This document shows, piece by piece, positions 10,413 to 63,626 of a stretch of 64,000 nt of DNA (its first letter is position 1; every line of letters starts with the position of its first letter). The notes beneath the pieces are model-generated. The model saw only the letters and a list, made by a program, of their open reading frames with translations, searched no databases and was not told the origin of the DNA. The translations under genes and the position numbers were made by a program. The stretch comes from Escherichia phage MLP3, in sequence record OK148440; one strand, 5' to 3'.

Positions 10413-11062
10413 TATTGAATCATCCCTTGAAGATCTTCTTTATCAAAGTGCTTCTCTACTACCGCTTCATACAGATCACGATTCTCTGAATAACGACGAT
10501 AGAAGGTTCCGTGTGAAATTCCCAACTCTTGCTGGATGTGATCATGTGGGATGCCGAGAAAGAGCATTGAGAACATGCTTGCCATCTTACGGTTTTCCAT
10601 AATGTCACTCAGGTCTTGGAAGAAGAAAAAGATTCTAGATTCCAAGAACGGGTCTCCAGTAGAATCATGCTTATCCATCGCAATCTCTAAAGGACTTTCC
10701 CATGAATTCATCTCAGGAGGTCTAAACATATCAGCCTCTGGAATAGAGTAGATACGTCGGTCTCCAACTGTCTGGCGATTAGAACGAATCGACCAGATGA
10801 TATTCTTGACACGATAAGTCATGTGCTCAATATCTTTTTCATCAGTGAGCAGAAGTTCTTCTTGCTTTGCAAACACAAAACGCCAAGCGTTCAGTAATAC
10901 TTCCTGAGCAACATCCTCTGCCTCGTGATAGTCTTTAATGTCATACATAAAATACTTATGCACAACTTTCCAGTTCTCTCGATAAAATTCATCGAAGGTT
11001 GGATAATATTTAATAGGAATGCCATGAATACGATAGCGTGTGGGTGTTGTCTTTTTCTTCAT
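10412..11062 (-). CDS. sigma-70 family (ECF-like) sigma factor
   Basis: region-2-like [15 protein letters not shown] and region-4-like [13 protein letters not shown] segments. Confidence 0.5.
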
Positions 11063-42787: not shown

Positions 42788-42863
42788 TGGTGCACCCTAC
42801 AGGACTCGAACCTGTAACCAACGACTTAGAAGGTCGCTGCTCTGTCCGTTGAGCTAAGGGTGC
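42788..42863 (-). tRNA. tRNA-Arg, anticodon UCU
   Basis: hand-folded cloverleaf: acceptor GCACCCU/AGGGUGC, D-stem GCUC/GAGC, anticodon loop CUUCUAA, T-arm ACAGG-UUCGAGU-CCUGU, encoded CCA. Confidence 0.85.
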
Positions 42864-57081: not shown

Positions 57082-59325
57082 ATGGCTAAGAAGAAATTTA
57101 GTGAAGATGTTTTGGATGAATTACGCGTTGACCTTCAACGTCGATTCAATTATGCTCAAGGATATGTAGACTTAGCTGTAAAAGGCTATGCTCGTGAGGC
57201 TTGGGAATACTTCTATGGGAACCTTCCTGCTCCAGTTACTGCTGGTAGTTCTAGTTGGGTAGACCGTACAGTATGGGAATCAGTGAACGGTACGCTCCAA
57301 GATATCATTAACGTGTTCTGTTCTGGTGACGAAGCGGTAACTTTCGTAGCCGATAACCAAGAAGATAGTGATGCTGCTGACGTAGCCACTAAACTTGTCA
57401 ACCAAATTTTGTTACGTGATAATCCGGGATACAATATTATCTCTTCAGCGGCACAAGAGTGTCTGGTTACACGTAACTCTTTTATTAAATATTATTGGGA
57501 TGAACAGACTTCTACTCAAACAGAAGAAGCAGAGGGTGTTCCTCCGGAAGCTTTGGCTGCATATGTCCAAGGTTTAGAAGCTGGTGGGCTTCAAGATTTA
57601 GAAATCTTTACCACTGACAATGAAGATGGTACAGTGGACGTTAAAGTAACTTACAAACAAACAGTAAAACGTGTTAAAGTAGAATATGTTCCTTCAGAAC
57701 AGATTTTTGTTGACGAACACGCTACCTCTTTTGCAGATGCTCAGTACTTCTGTCATCGCACACGTAAATCTAAAGAAGATCTGGTTGCTATGGGCTTCCC
57801 TAAAGACGAAATTGAAGCTTTTAACGATTGGACGGATATGATGGACACTACCCAATCGACTGTTGCTTGGTCACGTACTGACTGGCGTCAGGATATAGAT
57901 TCAGATATCGGTGTAGACACTGATGATATCGCTTCTATGGTTTGGGTTTACGAGCATTACATCCGTACTGGTGTACTGGATAAGAATAAAGAAGCAAAAC
58001 TCTATCAAGTTATTCAAGCAGGTGAGCATATTCTCAGTTGTGAAGAAGTAACTAGCATTCCTTTTGTAACATTCTGCCCTTATCCTATTCCGGGTTCATT
58101 CTATGGACAATCTGTTTATGATATCACCAAAGATATTCAGGATTTGCGTACCGCTTTGGTTCGTGGTTATATCGATAACGTAAACAATGCTAACTATGGT
58201 CGATATAAGGCGCTTGTAGGCGCGTATGACCGTCGTTCTTTGCTAGACAACCGTCCGGGCGGTGTAGTAGAAATGGAGCGTCAGGATGCGATTGATCTCT
58301 TCCCATACCATAATCTACCTCAAGGTATCGATGGCTTGCTGGGAATGTCTGATGAGTTGAAAGAAACTCGTACTGGTGTTACTAAGCTTGGTATGGGTAT
58401 TAACCCTGATGTGTTTAAGAATGATAACGCATATGCAACTGTTGGATTGATGATGAATGCTGCTCAGAACCGTCTCCGTATGGTCTGTCGTAACATTGCT
58501 CACAACGGTATGGTTGAATTGATGCGTGGTATTTATAATTTAGTCCGAGAAAATGGTGAGGTTCCTTTACAAGTACAAACCCCTCGTGGTATGGTTCAGG
58601 TTCATCCTAAACAACTGCCTGCTCGTCACAATCTACAAGTTGTTGTAGCTATCTCTCCTAGCGAGAAATCAGAACGTGCACAGAAACTCATTAGTCTGAA
58701 GCAATTAATTGCTGCTGATGCTCAGTTAGCACCTCTGTTTACTCTGGAGCAAGATCGTTACATGACTGCACAGATCTTCGAGTTGATGGGAATTAAAGAC
58801 ACTCACAAATACTTAATGCCTCTGGAACAGTATCAACCGCCAGAACCTTCTCCGATGGAAATCCTCCAGCTTGAGATGACTAAAGCACAGGTTGAGAACG
58901 TACAGGCTTCTTCTCAGAAGATGATTGCTGATGCATTCGACCAGCGTGAACGTACTACGTTTGAACAGCAGAAAGCTGCGGACGAGTTCAGCTTACGTCA
59001 AGAAGAACTGCAATTTAAGCAAGAGAATGCTGCTGATCAGATGACTTTGGAGAATCGTAAAGAAGACAACAGTGCTACACTTGAACAGGCTAAGCACAAG
59101 TTGGCTCTGCTCCAGCAACAGGTCCGTCAGTATGAATCTGTACTTAAAGAATTGCAGATGACTCTTAATCATCAGGTCGATGTTGAGAAAGTTGCAAATC
59201 AGGCTAAAATTCAAGATAAGACTTTGGAACTCCAAAAGAAAGAAGCAAATGAAACTAAGAAAGAACAGCAAAGTTCAATCAAAGATTCACGGATTCCTAA
59301 CCGTCGTCTTGGTAGTAGAAAATAA
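57082..59325 (+). CDS. portal protein
   Basis: 747 aa; follows terminase; C-terminal coiled-coil, charged tail. Confidence 0.7.
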   Translation: MAKKKFSEDVLDELRVDLQRRFNYAQGYVDLAVKGYAREAWEYFYGNLPAPVTAGSSSWVDRTVWESVNGTLQDIINVFCSGDEAVTFVADNQEDSDAADVATKLVNQILLRDNPGYNIISSAAQECLVTRNSFIKYYWDEQTSTQTEEAEGVPPEALAAYVQGLEAGGLQDLEIFTTDNEDGTVDVKVTYKQTVKRVKVEYVPSEQIFVDEHATSFADAQYFCHRTRKSKEDLVAMGFPKDEIEAFNDWTDMMDTTQSTVAWSRTDWRQDIDSDIGVDTDDIASMVWVYEHYIRTGVLDKNKEAKLYQVIQAGEHILSCEEVTSIPFVTFCPYPIPGSFYGQSVYDITKDIQDLRTALVRGYIDNVNNANYGRYKALVGAYDRRSLLDNRPGGVVEMERQDAIDLFPYHNLPQGIDGLLGMSDELKETRTGVTKLGMGINPDVFKNDNAYATVGLMMNAAQNRLRMVCRNIAHNGMVELMRGIYNLVRENGEVPLQVQTPRGMVQVHPKQLPARHNLQVVVAISPSEKSERAQKLISLKQLIAADAQLAPLFTLEQDRYMTAQIFELMGIKDTHKYLMPLEQYQPPEPSPMEILQLEMTKAQVENVQASSQKMIADAFDQRERTTFEQQKAADEFSLRQEELQFKQENAADQMTLENRKEDNSATLEQAKHKLALLQQQVRQYESVLKELQMTLNHQVDVEKVANQAKIQDKTLELQKKEANETKKEQQSSIKDSRIPNRRLGSRK

Positions 59326-59334
59326 GGATACTGA

Positions 59335-59571
59335 ATGAATACAAGACAGCAATTCAATAAAGAGCACGCCGCCGCTTTGGCGGCTCTCAATCACAACGGC
59401 ATTCTTGACGCAGCATTAGAGGCATTAAAAGAAACCCTCATGAGAGATATTGTATTAACCGAGGCTCATGAGAATAAGAAACGCGAAGAGTGTTATCAAA
59501 AGTATAAAATGGTTGGTAGCTTAAAAGAGGTCATAAAAGCTGCTATCAATAATGCAGGAGATATTTCCTAA
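59335..59571 (+). CDS. hypothetical head-module protein
   Basis: ATG; between portal and scaffold. Confidence 0.45.
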   Translation: MNTRQQFNKEHAAALAALNHNGILDAALEALKETLMRDIVLTEAHENKKREECYQKYKMVGSLKEVIKAAINNAGDIS

Positions 59572-60653
59572 TGGCAAATGATTATATTGACCCGAACGAT
59601 TTTAAATCTTTCCTCCAACTAGACGACTTAAAAGGCTCCTTCAAAGAAGAGCTTAGTCAATTAGAATCAGAACGTGAACCAGAAGTGAACATTGATGATG
59701 AATTCCCAGAACAGTCTGAGACTTTTGATCTTGATGCTTCCGACCTTCTCGGTGATGACGATACGTTAGCGTTCGAAGATGAAGATGGTTGGGAAGATCG
59801 TGAAGAGGAAGGCGAAGAAGAAGAGGAAGAGTCTGAGTTCTCTGATGAAGACGGTGAAGAAGATGATTCCGGTGAAGCAGATCACGATGAAGCTGCTAAC
59901 AGCGATGAAGATGGCGAAGAAGGTGAAGTCTTTGACGTAGATTATGAAACTGTTATCACCCTTCCTGATGGTCGTGAGATGACTATTGAAGAGTTGTCTA
60001 ATGGCTATTTGACTGGTGCAGAAATGTCCGAACGTGAGACTACTTTGCAGCGTCATGTTGAAGCTTTTGAAGAACGTGTTGCTGGCTTGGGGGATGTATT
60101 AGAACTAGCTGCCCTAGAAGCAGACCGAGTAATTGAAGATTACAACGGTTTTGATTGGGACAAACTTGCACAAGAAGATCCTCAAGCTTATGTAGAAAAC
60201 AAACGTTTCTTAGAAAAATATACAGCTCGTCGCCAACAGCTTGAACAAGCTCAGCTTAAAATCAAGCAAGAAGCACTAGCAAAAGAACAACAGCTCTTCC
60301 AAGCTAAATGTACTGAGTGTGTAAGCGTACTTAAACGTGAGATTCCTAATTGGGATGACAACTTGTATCAGAACCTGATGCAGTATGCAATCGACTTAGG
60401 TGCTACAGAAGAAGAAGTGCTGAAAGAGAACCGTCCGTCAATCTTCCTAGCTCTACACAAAGCATACCAGTTTGATAAAGGTAAGCAGCAGGTGATGGCT
60501 AAGATTAAACGTCCCGGCTCTCCACGCAAGGTTGTGAAGTCCGATGCTTCTAAGTCTCGTTCTTCCAATACGCCAGACAACGCTAAGGTTGCCAAGGCAT
60601 TCTCAGAGGGTCGTATTCGTCACGAAGACGCATTTAAGTATCTCGTAGATTAA
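59571..60653 (+). CDS. scaffolding protein candidate
   Basis: highly acidic N-terminal half, coiled-coil C-terminal half, immediately upstream of capsid gene. Confidence 0.55.
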   Translation: MANDYIDPNDFKSFLQLDDLKGSFKEELSQLESEREPEVNIDDEFPEQSETFDLDASDLLGDDDTLAFEDEDGWEDREEEGEEEEEESEFSDEDGEEDDSGEADHDEAANSDEDGEEGEVFDVDYETVITLPDGREMTIEELSNGYLTGAEMSERETTLQRHVEAFEERVAGLGDVLELAALEADRVIEDYNGFDWDKLAQEDPQAYVENKRFLEKYTARRQQLEQAQLKIKQEALAKEQQLFQAKCTECVSVLKREIPNWDDNLYQNLMQYAIDLGATEEEVLKENRPSIFLALHKAYQFDKGKQQVMAKIKRPGSPRKVVKSDASKSRSSNTPDNAKVAKAFSEGRIRHEDAFKYLVD

Positions 60654-60693
60654 TCGACAAATTTATTTTTAATAGTATAGGAGCTAATATAAC

Positions 60694-61749
60694 ATGGCAA
60701 ATCCAACTTTATTTGTATCTTACGACCAGAATGGTAAAAAACTTTCTTTTGCTAACTGGATTTCTGTCCTGTCTCCGCAAGACACTCCGTTTGTGTCTAT
60801 GACTGGTAAAGAGTCTATCAATCAGACTATTTTCAGCTGGCAGACCGATGCTCTGGCGAGCGTAGATGCTAACAACGCCCACGTCGAAGGCTCTCGTGCT
60901 GAAGACGGCGAAATGAAACCGACTGTAATCAAGTCCAACGTTACTCAGATCCTGCGTAAAGTTGTTCGTGTTTCTGATACTGCTAACACCACCGCTAACT
61001 ACGGTCGTGGTCGTGAACTGATGTATCAGCTGGAGAAGAAAGGTAAAGAGATTAAACGTGACCTCGAGAAAATCCTGCTGTCCGGTCAGGCTCGTACCGA
61101 TATTCTGGCAGACCAGTATCTGACCAACTCTGCAACTGATCCTGCTGTTGTAGGTCAGAATGATACCTCAGCTGCTCGTAAGACTGGTGCTTTCCAGTTC
61201 CTGTGTGCACACAATGGTGTTGCTGGTGGTGTTGTTAAGAAAGAAGATGGTCCTGCTGACCCGGATACTGGTGCAGTAACTGTTAAAGTTGCACAGAATG
61301 CTTCTAACCCGACTACTAACATCGGTTTTGATGAAGCTGATATCTTTGATATGACTCTGCAATTGTATACCGCTGGTTCTGAAGCAGACATCATCATGAT
61401 TAACCCTGCTCACGCTAGTATCTTTGCTAAGCTTCAGGAAAACTCTGTTGGTTCTCGTCAGCGTATCTTTGAGAACACCAAACAGTTCATCTATGAAGTT
61501 AACAGCATCACTGACCCGCTGGGCCAGAGCTATAAAATCATCGTTAACCGTTGGATGCCTGCTGATGCAGTTTACTTCTTCCGCAGCTCTGACTGGACTC
61601 AGATGGTTCTTCGTGCTCCGAAACGTACTGAACTGGCTAAAGATGGTTCTTACGAGAAGTGGATGATTGAAATGGAAGTTGGTCTGCGTCACCGCAACCC
61701 GTATGCTTCCGGCGTTCTGTTCACTGCTGCGGGAAAGGTGGCGGCGTAA
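60694..61749 (+). CDS. major capsid protein
   Basis: 351 aa after scaffold with strong TAGGAG RBS; position and size typical. Confidence 0.7.
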   Translation: MANPTLFVSYDQNGKKLSFANWISVLSPQDTPFVSMTGKESINQTIFSWQTDALASVDANNAHVEGSRAEDGEMKPTVIKSNVTQILRKVVRVSDTANTTANYGRGRELMYQLEKKGKEIKRDLEKILLSGQARTDILADQYLTNSATDPAVVGQNDTSAARKTGAFQFLCAHNGVAGGVVKKEDGPADPDTGAVTVKVAQNASNPTTNIGFDEADIFDMTLQLYTAGSEADIIMINPAHASIFAKLQENSVGSRQRIFENTKQFIYEVNSITDPLGQSYKIIVNRWMPADAVYFFRSSDWTQMVLRAPKRTELAKDGSYEKWMIEMEVGLRHRNPYASGVLFTAAGKVAA

Positions 61750-61760
61750 CAGTAGACAGT

Positions 61761-62273
61761 GTGACTGTTAGCCCTGCGTCTTTAGCAAGCCTAGAGACAG
61801 GGGCTACTCGGCAGTTCACTGCAAGCGCGGAGAAAAGTGATGGTTCTACCGAAACAACTGGCTTTACTTGGTCAGTGACAGGAGGTGGTTCTATCACTCA
61901 GTCGGGTTTGTATACTGCTCCGAGTGCGTCTCAATCCACTGATGTATCCATTACTGCAACTTTAGAAGGTGTTTCTGGTACAGCAACCATTTCTGAAATT
62001 GTTGCTCCTGCTCCTACTATTGTAGCTAAGGGTCCAATTACGGGTAAAACTGGTGGTTCTTCCACTAACTTCACTACCATGTTTACTGTAACTAATTCTA
62101 CTGCTGCGGATTACACGTTTGTTGTAACCCCTACAGAAGCTGGTACAGTAAGCGCCGCTGGTGCGTTAACCTTAGATGCTGCTGCAAGTGGCGAAGTTAC
62201 TGTTCAAGCAAGTTTGACAGCTGACCCGTCCATCAATGCAACATGCACTTTTACTGGTGTAACACCTGCTTAA
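61761..62273 (+). CDS. Ig-like domain ORF, probably expressed as a -1 frameshift C-terminal extension of the capsid protein
   Basis: Thr/Ser/Gly-rich beta-type sequence; no ATG or RBS (GTG only); frame open from 61671; slippery G_GGA_AAG at 61731-61737. Confidence 0.5.
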   Translation: MTVSPASLASLETGATRQFTASAEKSDGSTETTGFTWSVTGGGSITQSGLYTAPSASQSTDVSITATLEGVSGTATISEIVAPAPTIVAKGPITGKTGGSSTNFTTMFTVTNSTAADYTFVVTPTEAGTVSAAGALTLDAAASGEVTVQASLTADPSINATCTFTGVTPA

Positions 62274-62280
62274 AACTAGA

Positions 62281-62304
62281 CCCTGCCTTCGGGCGGGGTT
62301 TTTT
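62281..62304 (+). terminator. rho-independent terminator after capsid module
   Basis: CCCTGCC-TTCG-GGCGGGG followed by T6. Confidence 0.65.
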
Positions 62305-62332
62305 CGTTTTAAGACCTATACAAGCTAGTGTG

Positions 62333-62374: not shown

Positions 62375-62887
62375 ATGGCAATGCCAGATTTCAGAGGAGC
62401 TTTTACATATAACCCAAATACAGGGCATCTTTTCTGGTCTATGAGTAACATATTCAATAAACAGAAAGGTCAACGTGCTGGATGTATTAATAGTAAGGGA
62501 TATCGTGTGTTAACCTTCAAGAAGAAATCTTACCTAGAGCATAGAGTCATAGCTGAACTCTTTCTTCCTAAAGTAGAAGGGAAGGAGTATGTCAACCATA
62601 AGAATGGAATAAAAGATGACAACAGGATTGAGAAGCTAGAGTGGTGTACTCAACAAGAAAACTGTGTACATGCTTATGAAACAAAACTCTCAACACCAAG
62701 GAATCTTGAGGATAATCCTAATTCCAAACTTACTAAAGAACAAGTTCTTTTCTGTTTAGAGAACTATAAACCGAGGGACAGACAGTTCGGAGCTAGAGCT
62801 TTAGCTAGGAAGTTTGGAGTCTCTTCAAGCACAATAAGCCTAATAATCAATGGCACAAACTGGAAGGAGGTATCCTATGTTGCCTGA
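62375..62887 (+). CDS. HNH homing endonuclease
   Basis: VNHKNGIKDDNRIEKLEWCTQQEN HNH core; own terminator and promoter motif. Confidence 0.7.
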   Translation: MAMPDFRGAFTYNPNTGHLFWSMSNIFNKQKGQRAGCINSKGYRVLTFKKKSYLEHRVIAELFLPKVEGKEYVNHKNGIKDDNRIEKLEWCTQQENCVHAYETKLSTPRNLEDNPNSKLTKEQVLFCLENYKPRDRQFGARALARKFGVSSSTISLIINGTNWKEVSYVA

Positions 62888-63626
62888 CGTTCAATACCCC
62901 ATCAATACCTATGGGTGGCTAAAGAAGGCCGTGTCCCTCTGGGCAGATAGGGACGATGACGAATTTGTTAATCAAATTCCAAACTTTATTAACTTTGCAG
63001 AGAAAGAGATTTATCGTAACTTACGTATTCCTCCTCTGGAAAAAGAAGTGTATTTAGATATTAAAGATGGAGTAGCTTATATTCCTCCTGATTACTTAGA
63101 AGCTCAATGGATGATGAGAGCCAAAGATGGCACAATCTTCCAAGTAACCTCTCCTGAAGAGATTAGCTATCGTAGACAGCATGGAACAATTAACCCATCT
63201 CACTGGAATAACCAACCTGTCAACTTTGCTCGTTTCGGTAGTCGTTTCATTTTCTACCCTAGCATCGAAGCAGATACTCCGTACTACCCTGATGATGGAA
63301 GCCCTTTGATTCCAGCAGAAAACTCAGTGATTCTTAGCTATTATGCAGACCCACCGGAATTCCATGAAGATACAGATACTAGTACTATTCTTACTATAGC
63401 ACCAGAACTTCTTCTGTACTTCACCCTACGTCATGCTTGTCTCTTTGTTCAAGATGATAATGGTGTTCAGAAATGGTCAGCATTAGGAAAAGCTATCCTT
63501 GATGAAATAGTAGAGCAGAATAAGAAACAAGAGTACTCAGGTTCACCTATCGCAATTCCGAATAACATGACTCGACTTCAGAGCAGCTTGCCTGATATTT
63601 ATGGTATTCGTACTTCTCGTGTATAA
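62877..63626 (+). CDS. virion structural protein (function unassigned)
   Basis: ATG at 62877 with AAGGAGG RBS, overlapping HNH stop. Confidence 0.5.
   Translation: MLPDVQYPINTYGWLKKAVSLWADRDDDEFVNQIPNFINFAEKEIYRNLRIPPLEKEVYLDIKDGVAYIPPDYLEAQWMMRAKDGTIFQVTSPEEISYRRQHGTINPSHWNNQPVNFARFGSRFIFYPSIEADTPYYPDDGSPLIPAENSVILSYYADPPEFHEDTDTSTILTIAPELLLYFTLRHACLFVQDDNGVQKWSALGKAILDEIVEQNKKQEYSGSPIAIPNNMTRLQSSLPDIYGIRTSRV

Follow-up and report, generated by a model that had tools for sequence, protein, structure and literature searches.

A highly probable -1 programmed ribosomal frameshift joining the major capsid protein of Escherichia phage MLP3 to Ig-like domains

In Escherichia phage MLP3 (sequence record OK148440), a phiEco32/SU7-like prolate podophage of the subfamily Gordonclarkvirinae, the gene for the major capsid protein very probably gives rise to two products: the capsid protein itself and a longer form, in which a -1 programmed ribosomal frameshift at the slippery heptamer G_GGA_AAG (61731-61737, plus strand) appends immunoglobulin (Ig)-like domains to the C-terminus. 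Coordinates are those of the window, the whole stretch of 64,000 nucleotides (nt) that was analyzed. The frameshift had been proposed in an initial annotation of this DNA, and its basis in the present analysis is the anatomy of the locus, its conservation, the constraint on its coding sequence, and the lack of any independent start that is conserved. This capsid-gene frameshift cassette is already described and annotated for close relatives of MLP3. To that record, the analysis adds a candidate downstream hairpin with synonymous constraint, an apparent recombination junction 5' of the site, and the other routes that sister lineages appear to have taken to the same end.

The major capsid protein gene (60694-61749, plus strand) lies within a portal-scaffold-capsid module, as judged from gene order, and encodes a zero-frame product of 351 amino acids (aa) that ends at the stop codon TAA (61747-61749). 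The protein matches the Pfam family SU10_MCP (PF17236) with 267 bits and the SU10 capsid chain 7z45_A with an E-value of 5e-222. A Shine-Dalgarno (SD) sequence, AGGAG (60679-60683, plus strand), precedes the gene with a predicted anti-SD pairing energy of -6.5 kcal/mol and serves both products as the sole point of ribosome entry. The zero-frame codons at the 3' end of the gene read GCG GGA AAG GTG GCG GCG TAA, such that the heptamer falls in the X_XXY_YYZ register with GGA at 61732-34 and AAG at 61735-37. With respect to the capsid gene, the downstream Ig-like open reading frame (ORF) occupies the -1 frame (60694 mod 3 = 1; 61761 mod 3 = 0), which is open from 61671 to 62273, resulting in a 79-nt stretch (61671-61749, plus strand) in which the zero and -1 frames are both open. 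The end of the capsid gene, the extent of the overlap, and the register of the heptamer are all as initially described. The position given there for the heptamer was likewise correct, although 9 nt, rather than 10, separate it from the stop codon.

Following a -1 slip, the message reads GGT GGC GGC GTA ACA GTA GAC AGT GTG ACT..., which translates as GGGVTVDSVT... The new tail is therefore the one initially predicted, except that it replaces the last three residues (V-A-A) and not the last four, and adds 178 aa. The frameshift product, join(60694..61737, 61737..62273), would comprise 526 aa and 55.6 kDa, compared with 351 aa and 38.6 kDa for the unextended capsid protein. GGGAAAG is not enriched in the window, with four copies on both strands of the 64 kb against 7.1 expected, and only the copy at 61731 is in register inside a long ORF that is accompanied by a long -1 ORF. 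The remaining copies, at 10695 (minus strand), 18589 (plus strand), and 39588 (plus strand), were rejected as being out of register or not in long ORFs. The overlap offers 26 codon positions, and the probability that GGGAAAG would fall in register at any one of them is estimated at about 0.002. No further X_XXY_YYZ heptamers occur within the 3'-terminal 150 nt of the capsid gene.

The site was compared across 16 Gordonclarkvirinae loci and in more distantly related phages. All 16 loci carry the heptamer unchanged and in register, as does the distant Proteus phage Privateer, whose capsid protein is 58% identical. The -1-frame peptide G(S)GGVTVD(S/T)(V/I)TVSP, which starts 5' of the GTG codon that has been taken as the start of the Ig-like ORF, is kept through synonymous changes. 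Indels in the linker are 3 nt long, and the position of the zero-frame stop varies (at a gap of 9, 12, or 15 nt after the heptamer) with the -1 relation retained. A -1 ORF of 178-545 aa is open in 15/16 loci, the exception being that of SU10. Around the site, phiEco32 is 99.4% identical over 171 nt and shares the 9-nt gap to the stop.

The -1-frame extension itself (61737-62273, plus strand) consists of 178 aa and a stop codon, and contains two Big_2-type Ig-like domains at approximately 61752-62003 and 62004-62270. Pfam Big_2 matches the whole Ig-like ORF with 24.6 bits, above the cut-off of 22.8, and its two halves with 18.8 and 17.9 bits. With 21% T, 14% A, 13% S, and 11% G, the extension has the Thr/Ser/Gly-rich Ig-like character initially attributed to it. 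A profile built from 12 extension homologues matched an Ig domain of teneurin-like proteins (E = 8e-8) and, with an E-value of 1e-4, the C-terminal, Ig-like domain of pb6, the T5 tail tube protein. The ratio of non-synonymous to synonymous substitution rates (dN/dS) in the extension is 0.12-0.23, even where dS exceeds 1, indicating purifying selection. An AlphaFold single-sequence model of the 178-aa extension is all-beta but, with a mean predicted local distance difference test (pLDDT) score of 52, too poor to inform.

In the proposed mechanism, all ribosomes would start at the capsid ATG at 60694, and most would terminate at the TAA at 61747 to give the 351-aa HK97-fold capsid protein. A minority would slip by -1, with the tRNA-Gly on GGA in the P site and the tRNA-Lys on AAG in the A site re-pairing with GGG and AAA, respectively; a conserved hairpin 5 nt downstream would probably aid this slippage. 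The slipped ribosomes would then read GGT GGC GGC GTA... through 62273, producing a 526-aa capsid protein in which a Gly-rich linker and two Big_2 Ig-like domains take the place of the last three residues. These domains would presumably be carried on the surface of the head; this exposure, any adhesive function, and the efficiency of the frameshift are inferred.

A search for a downstream stimulatory structure, which the initial annotation had proposed, yielded a candidate hairpin at 61743-61773 (plus strand) with a 5-nt spacer from the heptamer. Its arms, GGC.GUAACAGU and ACUGUUAGCC, form 10 base pairs (bp) with one bulge around a 10-nt loop, and the pairing is extendable to 61738-61777. The minimum free energy (MFE) of the core is -10.8 kcal/mol (z = -1.95), and that of the 63 nt from 61738 to 61800 is -24 kcal/mol (z = -2.6). 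Fourteen sequences share an unchanging 7-bp hairpin core, UAACAGU/ACUGUUA, and differ in the loop. Furthermore, within the first 88 codons of the extension, those stem codons whose amino acid never changes are also invariant as codons (3/3, compared with 5/39 elsewhere; Fisher p = 0.005, in a post hoc test). Folding and synonymous constraint thus suggest a stimulatory element, without amounting to proof, and the downstream hairpin probably helps the frameshift. A second hairpin (GUCUUUAG, CAAGC, CUAGAGAC; 61778-61798, plus strand) adjoins the first; two of its pairs change on both sides among the relatives (UA/GC/AU and GC/UG), and 85.7% of the cells examined are paired.

A different structure was published for SU10, in which the stem-loop CTGCTGC-GGGAAAG-GCGGCGG holds the slippery site in its loop (PMC4281155). 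This stem-loop was rejected as the stimulator. Although 90% of cells are pairable, sliding the partner strand by -3 or +3 still pairs 99% or 79% of them, respectively, and no covariation was found. It was also discounted on the ground that it would be melted once the ribosome occupies the slippery site. The published stem-loop looks like a by-product of CUG/GCG triplet repeats.

An alternative to frameshifting is that the Ig-like ORF is a separate gene, translated from the GTG at 61761-61763 (plus strand) into a free 16.6-kDa decoration protein of 170 aa (61761-62273) with the N-terminus M-TVSPASL. Gene callers and most deposited records do list two coding sequences, the second being an "Ig domain protein" that begins at this GTG, and the SU10 cryo-electron microscopy (cryo-EM) paper treated gp10 as a free decoration protein. 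The codon is present, a weak GGCGG anti-SD match lies 17-21 nt upstream of it, and low-level initiation there is compatible with the computations. The pairing energy of this match, however, is only -4.8 kcal/mol and is equalled by 15% of random positions, whereas four of the five neighboring genes scored reach -6.0 to -11.4 kcal/mol (the exception being the adaptor gene, which overlaps the gene for an HNH endonuclease). The SU7 GenBank record likewise annotates ribosome-binding sites for the neighboring genes and none for the Ig-like ORF. These results bear out the earlier observations that the ORF lacks both an ATG (the first in frame is at 62079) and a ribosome-binding site. The GTG is not conserved: it has become ATA or GTA in NJ01, Paul, Bas89, EP335, and SGF2, where the next NTG codon lies 105 nt past the heptamer, and the first possible start in these five relatives would therefore fall inside the Ig domain. 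In addition, the eight codons 5' of the GTG are conserved as -1-frame protein. In Privateer, there is no NTG codon for 186 nt past the heptamer, and yet the longer capsid form was found in its virions (PMC7881722). Together, the non-conserved GTG, the conserved peptide upstream of it, the frame-keeping indels, the purifying selection, and the weak SD pairing argue that the -1 frame is entered upstream of the GTG, i.e., at the invariant heptamer, in agreement with the interpretation first offered for this locus. The triplet at 61761 is most likely a Val codon within the extension, and a separate gene is improbable. The two possibilities also differ in a predicted tryptic peptide of the frameshift product, GGGVTVDSVTVSPASLASLETGATR, which is not obtainable from GTG initiation because its first eight residues are coded upstream of that codon.

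Several observations weigh against programmed frameshifting to a functional capsid-Ig protein in MLP3, and some of them involve SU10, whose -1 frame has a premature stop according to both the sequence comparison and a published account (PMC9965538). At this locus (L003:2560-2585), the hairpin loop differs from that of the relatives by three changes, one of them a 1-nt insertion. They create the perfect palindrome CAGTAGACA-C-TGTCTACTG and a TAG that ends the -1 frame once 11 codons have been read; this is not a simple homopolymer sequencing error. In the mass spectrometry (MS) of SU10, the row labeled "9+10" holds 22 peptides at 50.3% coverage, compared with 23 peptides at 78.1% for gp9 alone (approximately 262 versus 275 residues), and it does not show extension peptides. 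Cryo-EM of the SU10 head revealed no extra density (PMC9509320), which is to be expected because the lesion truncates the -1 product, and which provides no positive evidence for the extension. For the longer isoform in virions, the protein evidence comes from relatives only, and in the case of phiEco32, it is second-hand, resting on statements in citing papers and a GenBank note. The z-scores of the downstream hairpin (-1.95 to -2.6) are modest, and its core lacks covariation support; covariation is uninformative here because the core stem never varies. From the SU10 lesion, which truncates the -1 product after 11 aa in a phage with normal heads, it follows that the extension is dispensable for assembly, and it might be argued that the cassette of MLP3 is intact but functionally negligible or decaying, with slippage too rare to matter and the extension a relic. 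This is very unlikely, given that the -1 ORF is open in every one of the 16 loci but that of SU10, that the extension is under purifying selection even at high dS, and that the heptamer and hairpin core are invariant. The loss in SU10 is also reported to be unique within the group of Kuravirus-like phages (PMC9965538).

It is also conceivable that the RNA polymerase, rather than the ribosome, slips at the A-run, producing mRNAs with an extra base. The transcriptional and ribosomal routes would give nearly identical proteins, and sequence analysis alone cannot separate them. Transcriptional slippage is known at runs of approximately 6-9 or more, whereas the homopolymer run at the heptamer has only three A (or three G). 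Moreover, the X_XXY_YYZ register is exact, and G_GGA_AAG is an established ribosomal site, one of the heptamers at which E. coli ribosomes shift most readily (PMC5009743). Transcriptional slippage is thus hardly credible as the source of the extended protein, and programmed ribosomal frameshifting at G_GGA_AAG continues to explain the locus best.

Much of this reading has precedent. GGGAAAG was named in SU10 "as in phage phiEco32" in 2014, with reference to phiEco32 work of 2008 (PMC4281155). The Privateer paper of 2021 likewise names GGGAAAG as the signal, reports two bands for the capsid protein and identifies the longer one by MS (PMC7881722), and it also states that the frameshifted product occurs in phiEco32 virions. 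The YF01 paper of 2023 then described slippage for the whole Kuravirus-like group, naming GGGAAAG (PMC9965538). The addition of Ig-like domains to phage structural proteins by frameshifting has itself become review material (PMC5009743). Approximately 120 deposited relatives match the region. In GenBank, the join is annotated for Privateer and for Paul, the latter with the note "Frameshift at GGGAAAG" and a citation of the phiEco32 paper (PMID 18294652). Among 13 Gordonclarkvirinae records inspected, Paul alone carries a ribosomal-slippage join, and in the other 12, the ORF stands by itself as an "Ig domain protein" or a "hypothetical protein". The correct annotation of the window is join(60694..61737,61737..62273) alongside 60694..61749. 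The value of the present case lies mainly in annotation. Biologically, it is one more instance of a well-described habit, in which tailed phages display Ig-like domains on some of their structural subunits by means of recoding.

The capsid body and the frameshift region of MLP3 have different affinities. In a comparison over 60694-62330, the capsid body is 97-100% identical to EK010, 98-100% to SU7, and 75-98% to phiEco32. From approximately 61650 on, a region that takes in the site, the hairpin, and the Ig domains, the sequence is 98-100% phiEco32-like except in one 60-nt window (0.88, 62194-62253), and from 61774 on, it is only 32-67% EK010-like. Relative to EK010, dS is 0.08 in the capsid gene and 1.8 in the extension. 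A recombination junction appears to lie at 61600-61700, and from the pattern of identities, the site and Ig domains appear to have been exchanged as a unit. It is tempting to combine these points and to suggest that the true stimulator is the invariant hairpin (61743-61773) and not the published stem-loop, and that heptamer, hairpin, and Ig array make up a mobile recombination cassette; this combined proposal is possible but tentative, and falls a little short of an even chance.

Over the 1.6 kb around the site, MLP3 is 99.6% identical to Escherichia phage 4E8; the identity is 99.1% for both SU7 and IME267, and 94% for both phiEco32 and SU10. Upstream, the portal gene (57082-59325) is followed by a small ORF and the scaffold gene (59571-60653), which lies between that ORF and the capsid gene. 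Downstream, the Ig-like ORF (61761-62273) occupies the space between the capsid gene and the gene for an HNH endonuclease. An intrinsic terminator (62278-62311, plus strand) closes the capsid/capsid-Ig transcription unit, and the 4E8 and SU10 records annotate terminators at the same place; no terminator or plus-strand promoter-like site was found between the capsid stop and the extension. The endonuclease gene (62375-62887) is of the HNH_3 homing type and sits between this terminator and the adaptor gene (62850-63626), which starts inside its 3' end. The HNH_3 gene is missing from 4E8, SU7, phiEco32, and SU10, and its distribution is sporadic, with 10 of 85 matching records carrying it (e.g., IME267, PAS59, and XT18). 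Rfam returned only tRNA in the window: a tRNA-Arg gene with anticodon TCT (42788-42863, minus strand) was the sole Rfam or ARAGORN match in the 64 kb.

Among known systems, the most similar is that of phiEco32 gp11/gp12 and the Kuravirus-like group (SU10, Paul, and YF01), which share the SU10_MCP capsid family, the heptamer, and the 9-nt gap with MLP3. The phiEco32 extension is a 178-aa Big_2 protein, as in MLP3, and the two are the same feature. Differences within the group concern the length of the extension (178-545 aa) and its loss in SU10. Privateer is a more distant counterpart, whose homologous capsid gene (58% identity) carries GGGAAAG at its 3' end, leading into a 169-aa -1 extension with Ig and Big_2 domains, and the join is annotated. 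It differs in that the heptamer abuts the stop (gap 0), the first domain of the extension matches I-set and Ig_3, and the phage belongs to the family Grimontviridae.

The 10A/10B proteins of T3 and T7 likewise arise in podophages by a minority -1 shift near the end of the major capsid gene, with two capsid species in the virion. The slippery site of T7 gene 10 is a U-rich heptamer, unlike G_GGA_AAG. The analogy that the initial annotation drew with T7 10A/10B is sound as a concept; T3 is the closer parallel, since its extension is Ig-like and that of T7 is not (PMC5009743). Phage lambda G/GT, on the other hand, uses the identical GGGAAAG heptamer, which is active in E. coli (PMC3296357). The lambda frameshift relies on modification of tRNA-Lys(UUU), and an efficiency of approximately 3.5% is quoted for it in the YF01 paper (PMC9965538). 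The lambda product, however, is a tail assembly chaperone rather than a virion surface domain, and its extension is not Ig-like.

Finally, this capsid-Ig product seems to be made in related lineages by different means. In the 7-11-like Salmonella phages, an SU10_MCP domain with C-terminal Big_2 domains is encoded beside a short capsid protein, and on that gene content, their virions would share the two-species capsid design. The difference is that two paralogous genes are employed, with no recoding. This in-frame fusion of a capsid paralogue to Big_2 is present in six 7-11-like genomes (SE131, 7-11, SeKF_80, pSal-SNUABM-01, PKM.Lu.22.1, and PKM.Hi.22.6), from which it follows that a capsid-Ig fusion is a real protein species in the SU10_MCP capsid family; this architecture independently favors the frameshift reading of the MLP3 locus. 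For example, SE131 (L005:1485-4261) has two tandem capsid paralogues, the second of which is fused to Big_2 and 586 aa long; here, gene duplication replaces recoding. Aeromonas phage APT65 (L009) has three tandem capsid paralogues.

In another example, the Lahexavirus-like phages (L015:3412-3440, L016, L017, and L018/L006, the latter being Aeromonas phage LAh_8) lack a canonical heptamer at the 3' end of the capsid gene and instead carry a conserved G_GTA_AAG 3 nt 5' of the stop, which may be a non-canonical A_AAG-type shift site. In L015-L017, though not in LAh_8, the fourth locus, a GC-rich, 6-bp hairpin (GCGCCC-CUAC-GGGCGU) lies 6 nt further downstream. The -1 ORF of 109-190 aa contains a strong Big_2 match (119 bits in L015) with no start codon before the domain, and the LAh_8 record gives this ORF as a "putative tail protein" of its own. 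In an uncultivated relative with 56% capsid identity, an in-register A_AAA_AAG (L020:3421-3427) is separated from the capsid stop by 3 nt; the -1 ORF of this relative is just 45 aa long, with no Ig ORF downstream. Alongside the GGGAAAG cassette that MLP3 shares with phiEco32, then, the Lahexavirus-like phages, with G_GTA_AAG and a hairpin, and the 7-11-like phages, with gene duplication, appear to provide two further routes by which a capsid subunit acquires an Ig-like domain.

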